Source: Mobula hypostoma (Eukaryota). Taken from it: 64,000 nucleotides of DNA. The stretch spans positions 154,692,001-154,756,000 of the forward strand of contig NC_086097.1 in assembly GCF_963921235.1 (NCBI RefSeq). The letters run 5' to 3'. Of this stretch, positions 2,925-53,871 are shown piece after piece. Below the pieces are notes generated by a model, which worked only from the letters and a program-made list of their open reading frames with translations, searched no databases and was not told the DNA's origin. Position 1 is the first letter of the stretch. Each line of letters opens with the position of its first letter. A program made the translations under genes and the position numbers.

Positions 2925-4092
2925 TGTCATCAGCCCCTCAAAGCTAATCAATAAGCTTCAAGACCTTTGCCTCAATACCTCCTCGTGAAATTGGATCCTC
3001 GTTTTCCTCACTTGCTGACTCCAGTCAGTTCAGATTGGCAAAAACATCTCCTCCACAATCTCCATCAGCATAGGTGCATCACAAGGCTGTGTGCTTAGCC
3101 CCCTGCTCGACTTGCTTTATACCTGAATGTGTGGCTAACCATTTCCATATTCAAGTTTGCTGATGTATGCCGATATATGATGAATCAGAATATAGGAGGG
3201 AAATTGACAATCTGGCTGAGTGGTGCCATAACAACCACCTCTTATTCAAAATCAGCAAGACGAAAGAGATGATTATTGACTTCAGGAGGAGGAAACCAGA
3301 GGACCATAAGCCAGTCTCCATCAGAGGATCAGAGGTGGTAAGGGTCAGCGACTTTAAATTCCTTGGTGTTATAATTTCAGAGGACCTGACCTGGGCCCAG
3401 CAAGTAAGTGCAATTACAAAGGAAGCACAACAGCACCTCGACTTACGCAGTAGTTTGCAAAGATTTGGTATGACATCTAAAATTTTGACAAACTTCTCCC
3501 GATGTGTCGTGCAGACTGGCTGCATCATAGCCTGGTATGGAGCACCAATGCCCTTGAATGGAAAATCCTAGAAAAAGTAGTGGATTTGGCCCAGTCCATC
3601 ACAGGTAAAGCCCTCTCCACCATTTAGCACATTTACACAAAGGGTTGTTGCAGGAAAGCAGCATCCATTATCGACGACCCCCACCATTGAGGTTATGCTC
3701 TCTTCTCACTGCTGCCATCAGGAAGAAGGTATAAGAAACTCAAAACTCACACCAGCAGGTTCAGGAACAGTTATTACCCCCTCAACCATGAAGCTCTTGA
3801 ACCAAAGAGAAAAACTTCACTCAATGTTCTCACAACCTATGGACACACTTTCTGGGACTCTTCTCATGTTCTCAATATTTATTGCTTCTTAATTTATTAT
3901 TATTTTTTCTTTCTTTTTGTACTTGTCTTTTGCACTCTGCTTGAACGCCCAAGTTGGTGCAGTCTTTCAGTGATTCTTTTATGGTTACTTTTCTATTATG
4001 GATTTATTGACTATGCCTGTAAAAAAATGATTCTCAGGGTTGTATATGGTGATTTATAGGTACTTTGATATAAATCTTCTTTGAACTTTGAA
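2925..4092 (+). mobile_element. Rex1/Babar-type LINE 3' fragment
   Basis: RT remnants GASQGCVLSPLL and EYRREIDNLAEWCHNNHLLFKISKTKEMIIDFRR...FKFLGVIISEDLTW, with a ttgaac-type tail at about 4080-4092. Confidence 0.8.
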
Positions 4093-4145
4093 TTTTCTTA
4101 AACTTTAAGGAGAAGCTCTAACTACGTTGTGTTAAATGCCCACAG

Positions 4146-4200
4146 GGCAAAGATGCAAGTGAGCACTGGATCAGGGAGGTTTGCATGAGCATAATTTAAA
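4146..4200 (+). CDS. Collagen IX-like FACIT gene, NC2 exon (55 bp), with in-frame TAA at 4197-4199
   Basis: ccacag|exon|gtgagt. Reads GKDASEHWIREVCMSII*, similar to the recalled NC2 of COL9A3 (GKEASEQRIRELC) and COL9A1 (QHIKQVCMRVIQ). The phase 1 end fits the next exon. Confidence 0.8.
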
Positions 4201-4981
4201 GTGAGTGAGTGTCAGATTTTGAAATATTCCATGTTAAAGTTATCTTAAGATTTGACCCTCCAACTCTGTGGTACTCTTCTCTCTCACTGATTTTTATGGC
4301 TTTGGAATTATCCGGAGAAAATCTTTAACTAATGTGTATAAAATTCCATTGTCTTCAACTTCATTTAAAGGTTTTTATTTCTTTAAAATAATCAACAGAA
4401 AATATGCATATGAATTCGTCAAGTGTGTGTATAAGCATAGTGAAATTTCATGGCTTCTCTGTATTCCAATTTCTTGTACAAAGTATAAGTATAAAATTTG
4501 ATAGTCATTTTCTGCAGAAAATTGAATATCAAGAATATCTGTTTTGTAATAGCAAATTAAAGATAATCTATTCTACTTAAATAATGTTCATCTATTATTC
4601 TATCATTTTTGGCTTCAGATTTTACTTAAAATTCTGTCAAAGTCTGAACAAGTTAACTGTTAGATAGGGGACTGCAAAAGCAATAAAATATATGAACATA
4701 AAAATAGCAATTTTCTAATCAACCTTTCAAGTCTGTATTAGCCTTCAATGATATTAGAGCTATGTATTCTTGAGATGGGAAAATCTGGTAAAGGTTCTTT
4801 GTTCCAATCAAACAAGCATTTGCGGAGATTTATTCATATCTGAGATATTTTCATCACCATTTATGCCGGCATATATAGCCCATTTCTAATTACCCTTGGG
4901 TAACTGATAGTGACTCATCTTATTGAAGCAACCACACCATTAAAATTTAATGAGTCCTCATTTCCATTATTTCCTTTTTAG

Positions 4982-5146
4982 AGCAAATGTCTCAGCTGTC
5001 TGCTAGCTTAAGACTACCAGTTATGCCAGGAAATCCAGGCGGGCCTGGATCACCTGGACCTCCAGGAGAAGCAGGGCATCCAGGTGCTGTAAGCCCAAAA
5101 GGTGTCAAAGGTCACCAAGGTTACCCTGGTCAGCCAGGATCAAAAG
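4982..5146 (+). CDS. Collagen IX-like gene, NC2/COL1 exon (165 bp)
   Basis: ttcctttttag acceptor. Reads (K)[54 protein letters not shown]. Donor AAG|GCAAGT (GC type), phase 1-1. Confidence 0.9.
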
Positions 5147-6551
5147 GCAAGTAAAATAATCAGTGCAACGAGATGTGTGCCTAGTTCCAGTAAACTTATT
5201 GGCAAGACCTCTTGATGGGTGGATGAGGAGCCATGACAATCCACTGATCTCAGCTCTGTTGTTCTGAAAATATTTAGCAGTTGTTGCTTCCTCATTGAGC
5301 ATTACCATGGGACGACTCTAATTCTGCAAGCACCTAAAACAGTACAGTTAGGACCATTGTTCCCCAAATAATTTAGACGAATATGGTCTACACCATTATC
5401 CACCTTTCCTGCAAAGTACAGGTGGGCATGGATAATACCAGGCAGTGTGCTGGTCTGTAAATGACATGTCCATGTGCAACAACTATACCTTGGATTTGCT
5501 TTAACTATTGATCCTCCAGAAATTCCGGTTCGTGTGCCTTGTAATTGTCAGAGTATATATGCCATCAATGCAAACCCAGTTTGTCTAGATTTTGTTCATA
5601 CACATCTTCAAAAAGAGTACCAAGTGTCCAGTCACTGATTACCATCACCTGCCTTACAACATCTTTCAGACTTAGAGGTAAGTCTTAAGAACTTCCACTC
5701 GAGATTTTGTATCAATTGATGTACTCCACTAGTGTCCAATACTAAAAATTTCCCAGAGTCCCAGTAAGCGCCAGGCTGTACCTGCCCTTGTTTGCTTATG
5801 AACCTGTTGACATTTATGAAGTAGATGTTGAGTCAAGACAAATGGCCATTTGATGACTGTAGGAAATGCATATATGCTACACCACAGCAAAAGGAGCTAG
5901 ATAAAGTGGTACTGTTAAGTTTTGTAACTCCAAAATTAAGCTAAAGGAAAATATGAGAGCCAGAAGATGAGTGTCTACTTCATTTTAATTTAGTGAGGCA
6001 CGCACATAAGATCCAGTGGCGTAATGATGTATGCTATTCACGTACTTTTACATATAACTCGTAATAAATTATGCAAACACCAAAGGATGCTTAATCACAC
6101 GATATATTTACAATATTAATCAAATATTGTTGAAATATTAAATATACAACAGGTACAAGTTTCTTTGATACCATTTCCCGAAGGGTGCAGGCCTCAACTT
6201 TACTTTAAACCACTAATTTGTCTCCACAACCAGCAAAAACTGGAAACGTTGTCACTGAAGACAAGTCTTCCAAAATTCTCAGATCTAATAATCAGACCAA
6301 ATGGTTTGTAAGTGTCAAAGGTGGCTTTATCATTAATGGAATCCGACAGCAAAAGGTGAACTGTTGGAACAACCCGTCAGGGTCAAGCTGCATCTGTGGA
6401 GGCAAAAGGATGGCCAACATTTCAGGTTGAGACCCTGCATCAGGATCAGATTAAGAAGTGTCAATAAATCTCCTCAGAAATATTGGATGTTAATTTCATT
6501 CTGATTTTCACCACTGAAATGGAGCTGAAATTTTGAATTTATATATGACAG

Positions 6552-6620
6552 GGCAGCAAGGTGAAAAGGGTGAGAAGGGCGAAAAAGGTATTGGACTTCG
6601 CGGACCACAAGGGGCACCTG
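6552..6620 (+). CDS. Collagen IX-like gene, penultimate exon (69 bp)
   Basis: gacag|exon|gtaaat. Reads GQQGEKGEKGEKGIGLRGPQGAP, Gly-X-Y with the FACIT GIG imperfection, phase 1-1. Confidence 0.9.
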
Positions 6621-7202
6621 GTAAATATTAAGATTTCCTGTTTTAATATTGCAACACTTCTTCATACAAACTTTCATTTCAGTGAAATATAATCCATTTG
6701 GTATTGGTTACACCACAGCATAAGATGCTGGATAAGGTCAGAGCAGAATTGATAGGAAAATGTGCACACAGAACATGATTCCATGTACTCAGTGTCTGTA
6801 AGAATTTCAAGGTTACTGTCAGTTTCACGTGCACAGTGATATTTATTTCACTCATAACATGAATGAATATTGTTGATCTCTCCTCACTTGAGAAACTTGT
6901 AATAACTGGATTTAAAGTAGAAAACATAACTGGCATAAGACCATAAGACATAGGAGCAGAATTAGGCCATTCAGCCCATTGAGTTTGCTCCACTATTCCA
7001 TGATGGCTTATCCTGGATCCCACTCAACTCCATACACCTACCTTCTTGCCATATCCTTTGATGCCCTGACCAATCAGGAAATTATCAACTTCTGCTTTAA
7101 ATAGACCCACCGACTTGGCCTCCATTGCAGTCTGTGCCAGAGTATTCCACAGATTCGCTACTCTTTGGCTAAAAAAATTCCTCCTTACCTCTGTTCTAAA
7201 AG

Positions 7203-7392
7203 TCCCGCTTGATGGCACAATAATATCAGTGCCGGACTCCGGAACGAAGGTTCCCGAATTCGAATCCAAGTCGGGTTGAGCGTCGAGCTAGCAACTCGGC
7301 CTCGTAAACACAAGAATAGCTTGCTATGGAAACACCGTCATGACGGTGCCCCAATAACTCCACTGCCGAGTTAAGGGCTATTCTTCTTCTCT
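7203..7392 (+). mobile_element. tRNA-derived SINE with RTE-like body and (TTC) tail
   Basis: Box A-like tggcacaat and box B-like attcgaatcc. 13-bp TSD tctg(t/c)tctaaaag at 7190-7202 and 7393-7405. CpG-rich. Confidence 0.7.
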
Positions 7393-7818
7393 TCTGCTCT
7401 AAAAGGTCACCCCTCCATTTTGAGGTTGTGCCTTCTAGTCCCCACCATAGGAAACATCCTCACCACATCCACCTTATCTAGTCCTCTCAACATACAGTAG
7501 GCTTCAATGAGATCCCTGCACCCCCCCCCACCATATTCTTCTAGTGTTAATCCCTTCATTCCCGGAATCATCCTCGTGACCTCCTCTGGAATCTCCAATG
7601 ACAGCACATCTTTTCTGAGATATGGGGCCCAAAACTGTTGCCAAAGCTTTTATATTCTATTCCCCTTGGGAAAAAAATGCCAACATTGCATTTGCTGCTT
7701 TTACCACAGACTCAACCTGTAAATTAACCTTGTTGGAGCCTTGTACAAGAATTCCTAATTCCCTATGCACCACTGATGTTTAAGTTTTCTCCCCATTTAG
7801 ATAACAGTCTGCACTATT

Positions 7819-7956
7819 AACAGTCCTGACGAAGGGTCTCGGCCTGAAACGTCGACTGCGCCTCTTCCTATAGATGCTGCTTGGCCTGCTGCGTTCACCA
7901 GCAACTTTGATGTATGTTGCTTGAATTTCCAGCATCTGCAGTATTCCTGTTGTTTT
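7819..7956 (+). mobile_element. Short Penelope-derived insertion
   Basis: Perfect 13-bp TSD agtctgcactatt at 7806-7818 and 7957-7969. The sequence matches the terminus of the Penelope fragment at 48380-48520. Confidence 0.8.
7821..7858 (+). ncRNA. Minimal type I hammerhead ribozyme motif (Penelope-type)
   Basis: CAGTC-CTGACGA-A-GGGT CTCG GCCT-GAAA-CG-TC-GACTG: stem I CAGTC/GACTG, intact CUGANGA and GAAA core, palindromic ACGT in place of stem III, GUC cleavage triplet. Confidence 0.65.
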
Positions 7957-8565
7957 AGTCTGCACTATTGTTCTTTTTACCAAAATGCATTAACAGTATA
8001 AAGAGAAAGTATTAACAGAGTAAACTAGAACCTGTTTGCCATGCTAATTACTTGTGGAATATACTGTAAATATTTACTTTAAGTGCTGTGTGTGCAAGGA
8101 TACCCTAAACCTTGCGCATAATTTCTCACAATTTAAGTAGTTCCATCTTTCCAACTTTTTCACTTCTTCCAAAAATCAAATTCACTTCGATTTAATCGGA
8201 ATTGAGCAGTGGCAAGATAGCAGTGAATATGAAGGCACTGTTCAGGTTAAAACCAGTCAGCTACTAGTCTTCAGCTTCAATTGCATTAAATGTTCTGATA
8301 AATCTTATGTTTGCTAAAAGAAAGTTTATTCATTTTGATTGCCAGTTTTAAAAGGTTTGGTACTAATACTTTCACTTGATGTTTAAGTTAATTTTGGCAG
8401 TTTTTAACACTTAGGTGGGTTTATAATTTCAATAAGATAACTTGCTTCTTTAGGACTCAGTATTATCCCAATTTACTTTCAAGCAACATGTCTATATTAA
8501 AAAAAAACAAGCATTAGTAGTTTTTGGGATTGAAAGGATTTTACTGCGTTTGTTGTCTGTTGCAG

Positions 8566-8777
8566 GTGTTGATGGTATGCCTGGTATTGGAAAGGATGGC
8601 CGTGATGGCGCCCGTGGTGAAACCGGCCTCCCAGGTGAACAGGGACATCCTGGTCCACCCGGTCTAAGAGGCTTTCCTGGTACCTGTGATGCTTCTTCAT
8701 GCATGGGTCCACCTCATCTCTACATGGGAATGGGGATTGGTAAAACATCTCTGAGCATGAAAGGGCCAGCCAAATAA
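8566..8777 (+). CDS. Collagen IX-like gene, last coding exon (end of COL1 plus NC1)
   Basis: tgttgcag acceptor. Reads GVDGMPGIGKDGRDG...GFPGTCDASSCMGPPHLYMGMGIGKTSLSMKGPAK*, with the FACIT CxxxxC motif and terminal KGP. Confidence 0.93.
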
Positions 8778-9391
8778 TAGAAAACAGATTATAATGTGTT
8801 AACTTTTGTTCATCAAATCCAAAGGTATCAAGAGTTTAATTAAAATCTAGATATTTAAAAAATTGTCTTGATTCCTGGAATGTTATACTGTATTGAACAA
8901 GTAGTTTCTCTTTCTCAGGAATACTTCCAAGTTTTGAGGGCGGAACCATGTATATTTGAACTTTTGATTATCAGAGGAAGCTTGATGTCTCTAATGAACA
9001 TTTAAAAAGATTGCATTGTATTACCAACTTAATTAAATATACTTTGTTGAGAATCTGAATTGCATTTCAAGTACTGAAAGTGATTGTTTTTCATCAAATC
9101 ATAGTTCTGTGCTTTGTTGTTGTACCTTCTGTTAAAACTCCTTACCAGCTGCACACTGACCTAAAGTGAACAACCTCATTTACAGGAACTTCGCATTACA
9201 TGTGTGGATTAATCTTCAGGAGTATGTGGTTTGAGAGTTGATGTGATGATGATTAAGTCAGGAAAACATGTCAAAAGCTGATTCTAACCTTTCAGTATCT
9301 ATATTTTTTTCTGAACCATCCAAGCCAAAGGACAAACAGTTAAAGAGGAAGGATAGCATTTAAAATCTGTTTGTGTAGATGTAAACCATTC

Positions 9392-31837: not shown

Positions 31838-32952
31838 TTTTTTTTATTTCAAAATATACTTTATTCAAAAATAAAATTATAAACAATAAACCATTCAATA
31901 ACTTTCCATCCTTTAAATACATTTCCATTATAGTCTGTACATAAGGCCACCCATGTGGCACTCCAGTAGTTCAGCTTACTATATCATTGTTGAGGGGTAT
32001 ACTCCCCGCCACCCGACCCCTCCCACTCCCACGGGTGGAGAAACCTACACCACGGTCCTTCCCTACCGGGCCCTTGCGGTGGCTGCACTGAGTTTCAGTG
32101 CGTCCCTCAGCACGTACTCCTGCAGCCGAGAATATGCCAGTCGGCAGCATTCTCCCACGGACATCTCCATGTGCTGGTAGATCATCAAGTTTCGGGCTGA
32201 CCAAAGAGCATCTTTCACCGAGTTGATGATCTGCCAGCAGCACCAGATGTTGGTCTCCGTGTGCATCCCCGGGAACAGCCCGTAGATCAGGGAGTCCTCT
32301 GTTACACACCTGCTGGGGATGAAACGTGACACTAGCCCATCCATCCTCCTCCACACCCTCCCTGCGAACTGACAGTGTGCGAAGAGGTGGGTCACAGACT
32401 CCTCCTCACTGCAGTCCTCCTGTGGGCAGTGGGGTGCGGAGACAACGTTCCGGGCATACAGGAGGGCTCTAACTGGGAGGGCCCCTCTCACCGCCAGGTC
32501 TTGGTGCCTGTTGGTGAGATCTGGCGATGAGGTATTTTGCCAGATGAACTGGACGGTCTGCTCAGGGAACCACCCCACTGTGTCCATCACGTCCTTCTCA
32601 CCCGAGCTGTCTTCAGATTCATCTGGGGATCCAAGATGGAGCGGGTGAGACAGACCGTCATGCACAAGTCCCTGGACAACGGGGGCAAGAACGTCCCCAA
32701 TGTCGCCCTCACCCTGATGGCCAGCTTCGTATGTGGCTGCATCAGGTTGTGTGTAGAACCCAGGTATGTGGGCACCAAGTACCACTATGTGTCCAGGTTC
32801 TACCTGTCGCCCTGGCTACGAAGGATGAGTCTGGCCCCACTCCCGCGCAACACCCCTGTCAGCTGGTCGTTGCTGGCATACCTGTCCTACATAGAAAAGT
32901 TCTTCCAGGAGAACGCCTTTGACCACAGGGCCATCAGGCAGTGGTCGACACG
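31838..32952 (-). mobile_element. Tx1/L1-clade LINE, 5'-truncated, with 5' inversion
   Basis: Minus arm carries a zf-RVT motif CPQEDCSEEESVTHLFAHC, AATAAA and a poly(A) remnant. Plus arm reads RAVFRFIWGSKMERV...DNGGKNVP. Approximate TSD tcaaaaaaa(a)tat. Confidence 0.85.
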
Positions 32953-34704: not shown

Positions 34705-35130
34705 AAGACCATAAGGCATAGGAGCAAAATTAGCTCATAGACTATCGAGTCTGTTCCACCACTTGATCATGGCTGATCCATTTTCCTCTCAACCCCATTC
34801 TCCTGCCTTCTTCCTGTAACCTTTCATACCATGACTTATCAAGAATCCATCAATCTGCCTTAAATACAGCTAATGACCTGGTCTCCACAGGGGGCAGTGA
34901 ATTCCAAAGCTTTTCCACTCCCTAGCTGAAAAATTCCTCTTCATCTCCATTCTGAATGGACTCTGTTCTATTCTGAGGATGTGTCCTCTGATCCTAGACT
35001 TCCCCCACCACAGGAAATATCCTCTCTATTGAGGCCTTCCAACATTCGATAGGTTTCAATGAGATCCCCCCTCATTCTTCTGAATTCCAGTGAGTACAGG
35101 CCCAGAGCCATCAAATGCTCCTCATATAAA
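34705..35130 (-). mobile_element. CR1 3' fragment (outermost layer of a nested cluster; resumes at about 42380-42510)
   Basis: CR1 tail at 34705-34730. The sequence breaks at tgctcctcatataa and continues at gcctttcaatcccagaatc. Confidence 0.75.
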
Positions 35131-36226
35131 GGCATGCTGCAATTAAATCAAAAAGCAACAAATACTGGACAGAAAGTGTTATATTTGAATGCACACAGCA
35201 TAAGAAATAAAATGGACAATCTTGAAATTCAGCTACAGATTGGCAAGTGTGACGTTGTGGCCATCTCTGAAATTTGGCTAAAGGATGGTTTCCACTGGGA
35301 GCTGAACGTCCAAGAATATATGGTGCTTTGGAAAGACAGGTTAGTAGTCAGAGGGGGTGGCGTGGCCTTGTGTATAAGAAATAATGTTAAATTGTTAGAA
35401 AGGGATGACATAGGATCAGAATGTGTAGAGTCTTTATGGGTTGAGTTAAGAAATGGCAAGGGTAAAAGGACCCTAATGGCAGTTGTATACAGGCCTCCAA
35501 ACAGTAGCTGGAATTTGGATTACACATTATAACAGGAGATTGAAAAAGTGTGTCTGAAGAGCAATGTCATGATAATTATTTGGGATTTTAACATGAAAGT
35601 GGATTGGGAAAACCAGGCCAGTACTGGACCTCAAGAGAGAGACTTTGTAGAATGTCTAGGGGATGGCTTTTTAGAACAGCTTGTTGTTGAGCCCACAGGA
35701 GGATCGGCTGTGCTGGATTGAGTGTTGTGCAATGATCCAGCGATGATAAGAGACCTTAAGGTTAAGGAACCCTTAGGGAACAGTGATCACAATATGATCA
35801 AGTTCACTTTGAAATTTGAAGAGAAACTAAATTCCAATGTGTTGGTATTTCTGTGGAATAGAGGAAATTACAATGGCGTGAGAAGGGACTGGCCAAGGCT
35901 GACTGGAAAGAAACTCCAGCAGGAAGGACAGCAGAGCAGCAATGGTTGGAGTTTCTTTAAAAAATGAGGGAAGTGCAAGATAGATATATTCCAAATAAGA
36001 AAATTTTGAATGGAAGAACCGTGGCTGACAAGTGAAGTTAGAGCCAAAGTAAAAGCAAAAGAGAGGGCAGACAAGGAAGCCAGAGCTAGTGGGAAGATAG
36101 AAAATTGGGAAGCTTTTAAAAATTTGCAGAAGGAAACTAAGAAAGTCCTTAGGAAGGAAAAGATGAATTATGAAATGAAGCTAGCAACTAATATCAAAGA
36201 AGATACTAAAAGCTTTTTTTTAAGTA

Positions 36227-37830
36227 CAAACTCCATTTCCAGAAAAGTTGGAATATTTTCCAAAATGCAATAAAAACAAAAATCTGTGATATGTTAATTC
36301 ACGTGAACCTTTATTTAACTGACAAAAGTACAAAGAAAAGATTTTCAATAGTTTTACTGACCAACTTAATTGTATTTTGTAAATATACACAAGTTTAGAA
36401 TTTGATGGCTGCAACACACTCAACAAAAGTTGGGACAGAGTTAAAATAAAATTGAAAAGTGCACAGAATATTCAAGTAACACCGGTTTGGAAGACTCCAC
36501 ATTAAGCAGGCTAATTGGTAGCAGGTGAGGTATCATGACTGGGTATAAAAGTAGCGACCATCAAAGGCTCAGTCTTTGCAAGCAAGGATGGGTCGTGGCT
36601 CACCCCTTTGTGCCAAAATTCGTGAGAGAATTGTTAGTCAGTTCAAAAGGAACATTTCTCAACGCAAGATTGCAGAGAATTTAGGTCTTTCAAAATCTAC
36701 AGTACATAATATTGTGAAAAGATTCAGAGAATTCAGAGACACCTCAGTGCGTAAAGGGCAAGGTCGGAAACCACTGTTGAATGCGCTTGATCTTCGAGCC
36801 CTCAGGCGGCACTGCCTAAGAAACCGTCATGCTACTGTGACAATTATAGCCACCTGGGCTCGGGAATACTTCGGAAAACCATTGTCACTCAACACAGTCC
36901 GTCACTGCATCCAGAAATGCAACTTGAAACTGTATTACGCAAGGAGGAAGCCATACATCAACTCTATGCAGAAACACCGGTGAGTTCTCTGGGCCCGAGC
37001 TCATCTCAGATGGACCGAAAGACTGTGGAACCGTGTGCTGGGGTCAGATGAGTCCACATTTCAATTAGTTTTCGGAAAAAACGGGCATCGAGTTCTCCGT
37101 GCCAAAGATGAAAACAACCATCCAGATTGTTATCAATGAAAGGTGCAAAAGCCAGCATCTGTGATGGTATGGGGGTGCATCAGTGCCCACGGCATGGGTG
37201 AATTACATGTATGTGAAGGTACCATTGACTCTGAGGCGTATATTAGGATTTTAGAGAGACATATGTTGCCATCAAGGCGACGTCTCTTCCTGGGACATCC
37301 ATGCTTATTTCAGCAGGACAATGCCAGACTACATTCTGCACGGGCTACAACAGCGTGGCTTTGTAGACACAGAGTGCGTGTGCTTGACTGGCCTGCTGCC
37401 AGTCCAGATCTATCTCCTATTGAAAATGCATGGCACATCATGAAGAGGAGAATCAGACAACGGAGACCACGGACTGTTGAGCAGCTGAAGTCTTATATCA
37501 AGCAAGAATGGACAAAATTTCCAATTGCAAATCTACTACAATCAGTATCCTCAGTTCCAAAACGATTAAAAAGAGTTATTAAAAGGAAAGGTGATGTAAC
37601 ACAATGGTAAACATGTCTCTGTCCCAACTTTTGTTGAGTGTGTTGCAGCCATCAAATTCTAAATTTGTGTATGGTTACAAAATACAAATAAGTTGGTCAG
37701 TAAAACTATTGAAAATCTTTTCTTTGTACTTTTGTCAGTTAAATAAAGGTTCACGTGAATTAACATATCACAGATTTTTGTTTTTATTGCATTTTGGAAA
37801 ATATCCCAACTTTTCTGGACATGGGGTTTG
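36227..37830 (+). mobile_element. Full-length Tc1-family (DD34E) DNA transposon, 1604 bp
   Basis: TA duplication at 36225-36226 and 37831-37832. Terminal inverted repeats (TIRs) of about 214 bp at 36227-36440 and 37617-37830, each with internal direct repeats aaaagttgg. Confidence 0.95.
36588..37610 (+). pseudogene. Tc1 transposase, 340 codons, two in-frame TGA stops (36981, 37137)
   Basis: HTH region, GRKP, SDES, VMVWG, FQQDNA and SPDLSPIEN, with 34 residues between the second D and E. No frameshift. Confidence 0.92.
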
Positions 37831-39573
37831 TAAAGAGAGCTGAGGGTAGGTATAGGACCAATAGAAAATGACGCTGCAGATATTGTAATTTGAGACGCAG
37901 AGATGGCAGAGGAACTGAATGCGTATTTTGCATCAGTCTTCACAGTGGAAGACAGCTGCAGTATACCAGACATTCAAGACTGTCAGGAAAGTGAAGTATG
38001 TGCAGTGAAAATTACAACAGAGAAGGTGCTCGGGAAACTTAATGGTCTGAGGGTGGATAAGTATCCTGGACCTGATGGAACGCACTCTCGGGTTCTGAAC
38101 GAAGTAGCTAGAGAGATTGCGGAGGCATAAATGATAATCTGTCAAGAATCGATAGATTCTGGCATTTTACTGGATGACTGGAAAATTGCAAATGTTACTC
38201 CGCTATTTAAGAAGGGTGGGAGGCAGCAGAAAGGAAACTATATATCTTTTAGCCTGACATCAGTGGTTGGGAAGTTGTTGGAATTGATTGTTAGGGATGA
38301 GATTACGGAGTACCTGGAGGCACATGACAAGATAGGCCAAAGCCAGCATGGTTTCCTGAAAGGAAAATCCTGCCTGACTAACCTGCTGCAATTTTTTGAG
38401 GAAATTATAAGCAGGGTAGACAAAGGAGATGCAGTAGATGTGGTATATTTGGACTTTCAGAATGCCTTTGACAGAGTGCTGCACATGAGGCTGCTTAGTA
38501 AGATAAGACCCCATGGAATTACAAGGAAGTTACTAGCATGGATGGAGCACTGGCCGATTGGCAGAAAACAGAAAGTAGGAATAAAGGGATCCTTTTCTGG
38601 CAGGCTGCCAGTTACCAGTGGAGTTCCACAGGGGTTAGTGTTGGGACTGCTGCTTTTTACGATGTATGTGAATGATTTGGACTATGGAGTTAACGGATTT
38701 GTGGCTCAGTTTGCCGATGATACAAAGATAGGTGGAGAAGTGGGTAGTGTTGAGGAAACAGAGAGCCTGCAGAGGGATTTAGATAGTTTAGGGCAATGGG
38801 GGAAGAAGTGGCAAATGAAAAACAATGTTGGAAAGTGTATGGTCATGCACTTTGGTGTAAGAAATAAATGGGCAAACTGTTATTTAGATGGGGAGAGAAT
38901 TCAAAATGCAGAGACGCAAAGGCACTTGGGAGTCCTTGTGCAGGATACCCTAAAGGTTAGTGTCTAGAATGAGTCGGTGGTAGAGAAGGCGATTGCAATG
39001 TTGGCATTCATTTATAGAGGTATAGAATATAAGAACATGGATGTGATGTTGAGGCTCTATTAAGCACTCGTGAGACCACATTTGCAGTATTGTGTGCAGT
39101 TTTGGGCTCCTTATTTTAGAAAGAATATACTGACATTGGAGAGGGTTCAGAGAAGGTTCACGAGAATGATTCCAGGAATGAAAGGGTTACTGTATGAGGA
39201 GCATCTGGCAGCTCTTGGGCTGTATTCCCTGGAGTTCAGGAGAATGAGGGGAGATCTCATAGAAACATTCTGCATGTTAAAGGACCTGAACAGATTAGAT
39301 ATGGCGAAGTTATTTCCCATGGTAGGGGAGTCTCAGACAAGAGGGCACAACTTCAGGATTGAAGGATGTCCACTTGGAATAGAGACGCAGAGAAATTATT
39401 TTAGTCAGAGGGTGGTAATTCTGTGCCATTTGTTGCCATGAGCAGCTGTGGAGGCCAAGTCATTGGGTGCATTTAAGGCAGAGATAGATATGTTCTTGAT
39501 TAGCCGGGCCATCAAAGGGTATGGGGAGAAGGCAGGGGAATGGGGATGACTGGAAGAATTGGATTAACCCATG

Positions 39574-46955: not shown

Positions 46956-47143
46956 TTAAGGTCCTTTTTGATTGGATGGCCGACTGGCCAGGCTTGCATA
47001 GAGAGCACACTGTGCCAGGTCACAGACTCCATTCTGCCCACGCGGTCCCTGTGCGCCAGCAATGCCAGGTTGGCCGGGCTCTCCTTGTGGTCCTGGAGTA
47101 CCAGGCAGTCCATCTTTTCCATAGCCAGGTGTTCCAGCGATGC
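46956..47143 (-). CDS. COL22A1: Collagen alpha-1(XXII), last coding exon
   Basis: Reads GIAGTPGYGKDGLPG...GVCDLAQCALYASLASRPSNQKGP*. The recalled human C-terminus is CDPSQCAYFASLAARPGNVKGP. tag acceptor, phase 1. Confidence 0.9.
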
Positions 47144-47906: not shown

Positions 47907-47984
47907 CTGGAGGGCCTGGCAGGCCAGGATCACCCCTCTGTCCAATGCCCATTGCTCCTGGTTCACCTTTTTCACCTTTATCAC
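47907..47984 (-). CDS. COL22A1: COL22A1 exon (78 bp)
   Basis: cag|GDKGEKGEPGAMGIGQRGDPGLPGPP|gtaag, phase 1-1. Confidence 0.9.
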
Positions 47985-52323: not shown

Positions 52324-52506
52324 CTTTTGGACCTACTGGTCCTCTGGCTCCCTCCAGACCTTGTTCTCCGGGTGGGCCAGGTTCCCCTGGAACACCAGGT
52401 CTCCCTGGAAATCCATCATTCCCTTGTGGACCAGGAGGCCCTGGCTTTCCAGGTGTTGACTTAACGGAAACTGGTTGAAACTGAGACATGAGATAGGACA
52501 ACCGAG
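52324..52506 (-). CDS. COL22A1: COL22A1 exon (183 bp; end of NC2, start of COL1)
   Basis: ttttcag|[26 protein letters not shown]...GPVGPK|gtac, phase 1-1. Confidence 0.92.
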
Positions 52507-53804: not shown

Positions 53805-53871
53805 CATCAAGCTGCTTCGACAGCTCTTCCCTTATAAGTCTTCTCAAATACTCAGATGAAGGTGGCTCACC
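53805..53871 (-). CDS. COL22A1: COL22A1 NC2 exon (67 bp)
   Basis: ttccttag|GEPPSSEYLRRLIREELSKQLD|gtagg. The recalled human sequence is SPSMETLRRLIQEELGKQLE. Phase 0-1. Confidence 0.92.

Follow-up and report, generated by a model that had tools for sequence, protein, structure and literature searches.

The closest described counterparts of the gene analyzed here are extra COL9-type genes of bony fishes. The gene itself is a collagen IX-type gene whose 3′ end lies on the + strand of a 64,000-nucleotide stretch of the Mobula hypostoma genome (NC_086097.1, positions 154,692,001 to 154,756,000; hereafter the window, with positions counted from its first letter). In zebrafish, tagged Col9a1c (prp gene; LC546948) was located on actinotrichia and its loss led to disordered actinotrichia (PMC10119692), an effect also described in PMC11409509 and PMC13120675. 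In bichir, one study (PMC12923738) states that a 'col9a1-like' paralogue, LOC120515855, is 'absent from tetrapod genomes'; in its supplement file 9, the endochondral top 50 includes col9a1b, col9a2 and col9a3, and the fin-ray top 50 has a distinct 'Col9a-like' entry in second place, behind and1. Expression thus sets the extra bichir gene apart from col9a1b/a2/a3. In bowfin, 'col9a3-like a' was up 417-fold alongside actinodins (PMC8423624). In both fishes, extra COL9-type genes and actinodins are thus active together in the fin-ray domain. The identifiers of bowfin col9a3-like a and b are consecutive (AMCT00021756 and AMCT00021755, in supplement file 9 of PMC8423624), which would fit either a tandem pair or one split model.

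In this study, we report the analysis of the Mobula gene and of its relatives. We consider it fairly probable that the window holds the 3′ end of a TSPN-bearing COL9 gene near COL22A1, that this gene is likely the col9a1c of cartilaginous fishes and likely descends from an ancient fourth copy of COL9 whose sister is COL9A3, and that a premature stop codon likely makes this copy a recent null.

Gene structure and relation to col9a1c

A six-frame scan of the window for Gly-X-Y runs located collagen exons at 5.0-8.7 kb on the + strand and from 47 kb onward on the − strand, and found no collagen-like exon upstream on the + strand, between positions 1 and 4145. The four + strand exons (Table 1) have mutually compatible splice phases, and their donors are GT save for the GC donor after exon 2. 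Stop codon aside, their product is the C-terminus of a fibril-associated collagen with interrupted triple helices (FACIT), with the noncollagenous (NC) and collagenous (COL) segments NC2-COL1-NC1 and the motifs CDASSC and KGP: an interrupted short C-terminal COL1 follows the NC2 segment, and the cysteines of the COL1/NC1 junction, in exon 4, are spaced by four residues. A protein search with exon 4 retrieved one protein among 84 candidates, catshark scyTo_0007509 (P0001 in our collection), which was 78% identical (E 5.4e-25), and 127 of 166 residues of the whole C-terminal region are identical to it. Therefore, the four exons are not a product of chance. They had been proposed, together with their FACIT features, in an initial annotation made from the letters alone, and the AG acceptors, the phases and the catshark match bear this out.

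With regard to transcription, one 344-nt contig of run X18 (RNA by guess, and from another organism) aligns to positions 8565-8787 with 10 differences. The depths of this run in the exon 2/exon 3 bins were 0.49, 1.92 and 3.44, where 0.49, 2.02 and 3.39 are expected from one spliced contig, and by this arithmetic the contig covers about 50 nt at the 3′ end of exon 2. Exons 2-4 thus appear to be spliced together in a relative; exon 1 lies outside the coverage of runs X9 and X18, except for a repeat. The intron after exon 2 is of the GC-AG type (donor at 5147-5148), and the X18 run appears to splice it.

The N-terminus of catshark P0001 is a TSPN domain (E 3e-59 to PDB 2uur, the structure of COL9A1 NC4), and the middle part of this gene model looks mis-framed. 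In a 22-row tree of NC2-COL1-NC1, the window C-terminus and P0001 pair at 98/94; as the TSPN exons of the Mobula gene lie outside the window, its TSPN membership is taken by proxy from this catshark orthologue. A TSPN search with P0001 retrieved 12 proteins among 160 candidates, which beside catshark came from white shark, paddlefish, sturgeon, bichir, coelacanth and six teleosts. In the corresponding tree of 30 rows, these 12 col9a1c-type fish rows grouped at 100/99, apart from seven COL9A1 rows (99/95; five named by source or C-terminus, two unnamed), and the TSPN of Ciona fell outside both groups. The col9a1c lineage in this tree spans sharks to teleosts, plus coelacanth.

The tie to zebrafish comes from the primers used to clone col9a1c, which encode LDLNRLD and then GDTVC near the N-terminus and NIKGP at the C-terminus (PMC10119692). 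The pattern L..LDGDT..C is present in 7 of our 280 stored proteins, all of them of the type retrieved by the TSPN search, and the teleost members carry the primer peptide; a C-terminal NIKGP is found, among the same 280, in catshark P0001 only. In addition, catshark, bichir and teleosts each have gene models that combine this TSPN type with this type of C-terminus. Given the TSPN clade of the catshark orthologue and the primer-encoded peptides, the window gene is very likely orthologous to zebrafish col9a1c. It differs from the zebrafish and teleost genes in several respects: their C-termini are fast-evolving and stand apart from the shark ones in the C-terminal tree, a premature stop interrupts the window copy, and a function in sharks would be an extrapolation.

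It must be noted that the gene is already known from zebrafish and that its absence from tetrapods is probably already in print. In this regard, the initial annotation had allowed that orthology to a named fish col9a1-like gene would lessen its novelty; such a gene is at hand in the likely orthologue col9a1c, and the bichir paralogue is in print, as cited above. Within the literature covered, which leaves aside the two main zebrafish papers and some supplements, we found no four-paralogue COL9 tree, no placement of the gene as sister to COL9A3, no col9a1c-col22a1 synteny, no shark col9a1c and no loss in rays. The present data would move the origin of col9a1c back to before the split of sharks and bony fishes, and suggest that its name is wrong, the gene being closer to COL9A3 than a teleost COL9A1 duplicate would be.

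Among the 150 TSPN representatives listed (646 passed), 18 had their best match in the col9a1c clade at at least 82%, all of them to fish references, and none had a col9a1c-clade match between 47% and 82%. Clustering at 50% may hide a tetrapod member, and this survey is no test of loss. Neither canonical COL9A1/2/3 nor zebrafish col9a1c was present in the best 120 of 2287 C-terminal matches, which are swamped by COL21; the protein collection seems to lack many collagens, so absence there means little. In the public models of the col9a1c orthogroup (P0001, P0126, P0127 and P0129), COL2 is often truncated or out of frame, and the names given to them vary between alpha-1(IX), alpha-3(IX)-like and hypothetical; this may explain why the orthogroup has been overlooked.

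The premature stop codon

The collagen frame is interrupted in this genome by an in-frame TAA in the NC2 stretch (4197-4199), so that NC2-COL1-NC1 cannot be read through. The initial annotation had missed this codon, which falls in the part elided from its quoted translation. A contig of run X1, possibly from the source sample and thus not independent, is identical to the window over 4050-6045 (0 differences), stop included; therefore, the TAA is probably no assembly slip. Readthrough was considered and rejected, the TAA-A context being weak. A stop codon upstream of exon junctions leads to mRNA decay. Here the stop is well upstream of three such junctions, which predicts degradation of the mRNA, and any protein made in spite of it would be without COL1 and NC1. 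The premature stop would thus likely disable this copy. Other traits may likewise be signs of decay: with respect to catshark, exon 2 is six residues shorter and has one Gly>Ser change, exon 3 is three residues shorter, both deletions being in frame, and the terminal branch of the window sequence is 0.23-0.26 in the C-terminal and joined trees, against 0.05 for catshark.

Several observations weigh against a decaying copy, and they are also those which favor a gene still functional in the lineage, its identity unchanged and the TAA being a private or heterozygous allele, a consensus error, or bypassed by another donor. Between window and catshark, 1 of 35 glycines has changed, whereas of the 66 remaining sites 21 differ (p=0.0007), and both deletions preserve the Gly-X-Y frame. 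Among the 40 rows listed (279 more lie beyond the listing), three changes in exon 4 are unique to this organism, and all of them are synonymous. The excess of the window copy in relative-rate tests was significant with one of four outgroups, and a relative appears to splice the gene. Given the glycine conservation, the rate tests and the synonymous private changes, most of the divergence of this copy would have accrued under selection and, since the glycines are conserved, the stop would be recent, if disabling. As for a bypass, splicing from a GTGAGC donor that lies in phase after position 4158 would avoid the stop, but it would leave a 13-nt exon and remove 14 NC2 residues, including a conserved Cys; the X1 contig, in turn, agrees with the window across the stop. 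A contig of organism B differs from the window at 31 positions. On these data, a functional gene seems somewhat unlikely, although a serious candidate, and a recent null is preferred. If the stop were private to one animal, the locus would amount to an unremarkable orthologue, more aptly named.

Position in the COL9 family

No COL9A2 and no shark COL9A1/2/3 protein is among the rows of any tree, which weakens the placements given below. In the 22-row C-terminal tree, the window, catshark and bichir sequences group with tetrapod COL9A3 (96/95), apart from COL16/19/21/22, and the teleost col9a1c-type C-termini form a long separate branch. A grouping of window, catshark and COL9A1 was rejected by the approximately unbiased (AU) test (p=0.03), and in the joined TSPN and C-terminal tree col9a1c and COL9A3 (89/99) stand against COL9A1 (91/91). 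Trees of the kind called for in the initial annotation thus place the gene with COL9A3 and support a COL9-family chain distinct from COL9A1, COL21 and COL22. Orthology to COL9A1 was rejected on its separate TSPN clade and the AU test, even though the catshark orthologue has the TSPN (NC4) domain in common with it, and orthology to COL21A1 was rejected by the 22-row tree. In the electric ray Narcine bancroftii, there are two 'collagen XXI-like' proteins, P0050 and P0095; the latter has a long branch (1.15 in the C-terminal tree, 0.67 in the TSPN tree) and is possibly a second ancient COL21 paralogue.

Among named tetrapod chains, COL9A3 is the nearest by the C-terminal tree and by PDB score, with a similar NC2 and Cys-x4-Cys junction. 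The chains of PDB 9wxp matched the P0001 C-terminus at 140 (A3), 107 (A2) and 93 (A1) bits, although a true turtle COL9A3 reached 264 bits on the COL9A3 chain; searches with single exons did not discriminate the chains. The initial annotation had seen a mosaic here, with a COL9A1/A2-like KGP tail beside a COL9A3-like NC2 and cysteine motif. However, a KG[PT] ending is also present in COL9A1, COL16, COL21 and COL22 rows and a TSPN in a Ciona protein; therefore, both features are ancestral, and a mosaic origin was rejected.

The identification as col9a1c has its own weak points. The zebrafish link was made through short primer-encoded peptides and not through the zebrafish protein itself. Teleost and shark col9a1c C-termini are joined in 0% of bootstrap trees, with the constraint of the six col9a1c-type rows to one group not rejected (AU test, p=0.148). 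In the joined tree, tetrapod COL9A3 is not separated from the col9a1c rows, which are monophyletic in 21% of bootstrap trees. In addition, no identifier links the bichir or bowfin genes to the proteins analyzed, and the published passages covered on them give neither a tree nor synteny nor a shark orthologue. In this light, the gene might be the cartilaginous-fish COL9A3 itself with the ancestral TSPN kept, and no fourth chain would exist. The C-terminal grouping with tetrapod COL9A3 is in line with it, as is the identity of catshark to turtle COL9A3 (94/169), close to that with the bichir protein (90/153), and the tree alone is compatible with a COL9A3 orthologue. Such an orthologue should be without TSPN, a domain that COL9A3 is not known to have (none in P0006 or P0017), and have an OGFR-side neighborhood. 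Instead, the catshark orthologue has a TSPN that groups with teleost col9a1c-type proteins, and the window gene lies near a leucine-rich repeat (LRR) gene and COL22A1, whereas the turtle COL9A3 model is fused to an OGFr-domain gene. Moreover, col9a3 and 'Col9a-like' are separate entries in bichir (PMC12923738), transcripts of COL9A1, Col9a2 and COL9A3 are given for catshark (PMC13188829), and COL9A2 and COL9A3 for bamboo shark (PMC7932699), in both cases under the authors' labels, unverified. We hold a retained COL9A3 to be very improbable.

With a C-terminus that goes with COL9A3, and not with COL9A1, beside COL22A1, as a fourth ancient COL9 copy should have, the idea of the initial annotation that this may be a COL9 paralogue from the vertebrate genome duplications survives. 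In human, COL19A1 adjoins COL9A1 at 6q13, and COL22A1 maps to 8q24. The flank of the 8q24 block seen in the window is COL22A1, confirmed by its tree; the further members predicted for this block, FAM135B, KHDRBS3 and KCNK9, would fall beyond the window. The KCNQ family, with genes at 20q13.3, 8q24, 1p34 and 6q14, has the topology ((Hsa20,Hsa8),(Hsa1,Hsa6)) (PMC6585022), and a COL9A3 affinity beside COL22A1 would fit this ((20,8),(1,6)) pattern. A fourth ancient COL9 copy is thus likely, with its duplication origin inferred from this analogy. Alternatively, the fourth chain may stem from COL9A1 or COL9A3 through duplication of a single gene or a segment that preceded the shark/bony-fish split, and not from a genome duplication. 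The authors of the KCNQ study favor segmental over whole-genome duplication for this paralogon (PMC6585022), only one class of neighbor is seen here, COL22A1, and the TSPN domain is held in common with COL9A1. This last point loses weight with the ancestral TSPN of Ciona, and the COL9A3 affinity in a COL22A1 neighborhood repeats the pattern of KCNQ2 and KCNQ3 versus KCNQ4 and KCNQ5. A small-scale duplication therefore appears improbable to us, and a genome-duplication copy is preferred.

Putative fin-fold role and neighboring genes

NC2 starts triple-helix assembly in collagen IX. An intact protein of this type would begin its assembly there and would then coat the fin-fold fibers of collagen I/II (the actinotrichia of bony fish, the ceratotrichia of sharks), linking them to the matrix or to mesenchymal cells and so aligning the fibers. 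This bridging role is a suggestion of the zebrafish authors for Col9a1c (PMC10119692), and ceratotrichia are described as homologous to actinotrichia (PMC11681717); by analogy, the shark protein may coat and align ceratotrichia. Its assembly would probably not involve the cartilage chains and might be homotrimeric. A model of three copies of catshark residues 620-700 (NC2 region) scored 0.50, versus 0.01 for the best control, with 92% of contacts agreed and pLDDT (predicted local distance difference test) of at least 74; on eukaryotes, 17 of 29 solved pairs reach the mark used for this score, and of 30 single chains 0 do. This result points only weakly to a homotrimer and adds little, as like complexes have been solved (5CTD) and it may reflect memory.

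If true, the fin-fiber kit of jawed fishes that disappeared in the transition from fins to limbs would comprise a collagen as well as the actinodins. According to PMC13543312, batoids have no ceratotrichia in their pectoral fins, so that a second loss is plausible, though unproven; if the stop were fixed across rays, it would be an independent loss in animals without pectoral ceratotrichia. The widest form of this proposal has col9a1c, as a misnamed fourth genome-duplication copy of COL9 that lies in the COL22A1 block and is the sister of COL9A3, serving as a homotrimeric organizer of fin-fold fibers in all jawed fishes, lost in tetrapods with the actinodins and now being lost independently in a ray lineage without pectoral ceratotrichia, a convergent loss that would track that of fin fibers. 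Taken as a whole, we regard it as rather unlikely.

The − strand collagen was rebuilt from four exons (Table 1); its frame is open and it groups with teleost COL22A1 at 98/94. The stop codons of the two collagen genes are 38.2 kb apart, in agreement with the initial annotation, which had them tail-to-tail at about 38 kb. They are indeed convergent but not neighbors, since an intact LRR open reading frame (ORF), overlooked in the initial annotation, lies between them. Its Atlas cluster, 'LRRC40-like' (score 0.99), has 315 members and is chordate-dominated, and the ORF would be a useful synteny marker if conserved at the same position in other fishes.

Table 1. Coordinates of the features annotated in the window.
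Feature	Position	Strand	Evidence or remark
NC2 exon, exon 1 (55 nt, phase 0 to 1)	4146..4200	+	AG acceptor, GTGAGT donor; aligns to catshark P0001 NC2
In-frame TAA, codon 18 of spliced C-terminal region	4197..4199	+	Gln at the same place in catshark
Exon 2, NC2 end and COL1 start (165 nt)	4982..5146	+	AG acceptor, GC-type donor AAG/GCAAGT
Exon 3, COL1 (69 nt)	6552..6620	+	Splice sites; X18 bin depth 3.44 vs 3.39 expected
Exon 4, last coding; COL1 end, Cys-x4-Cys junction, NC1, TAA at 8775-8777	8566..8777	+	Catshark match; X18 contig
Single-exon LRR ORF, intact, 267 aa	25022..25825	−	Pfam LRR_8 E 1.6e-22; Atlas 'LRRC40-like' 0.99
COL22A1 last coding exon	46956..47143	−	Groups with teleost COL22 98/94
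COL22A1 penultimate coding exon (78 nt)	47907..47984	−	Same tree
COL22A1 NC2 end and COL1 exon (183 nt)	52324..52506	−	Same tree
COL22A1 NC2 exon (67 nt)	53805..53871	−	tblastn E 1.5e-7 and splice sites

Finally, transposon remnants were found in the intergenic region at 32066-32815, 35053-35529, 37140-37607 and 38131-38964, with matches to zf-RVT, endonuclease (weak), DDE_3 transposase and RVT_1.

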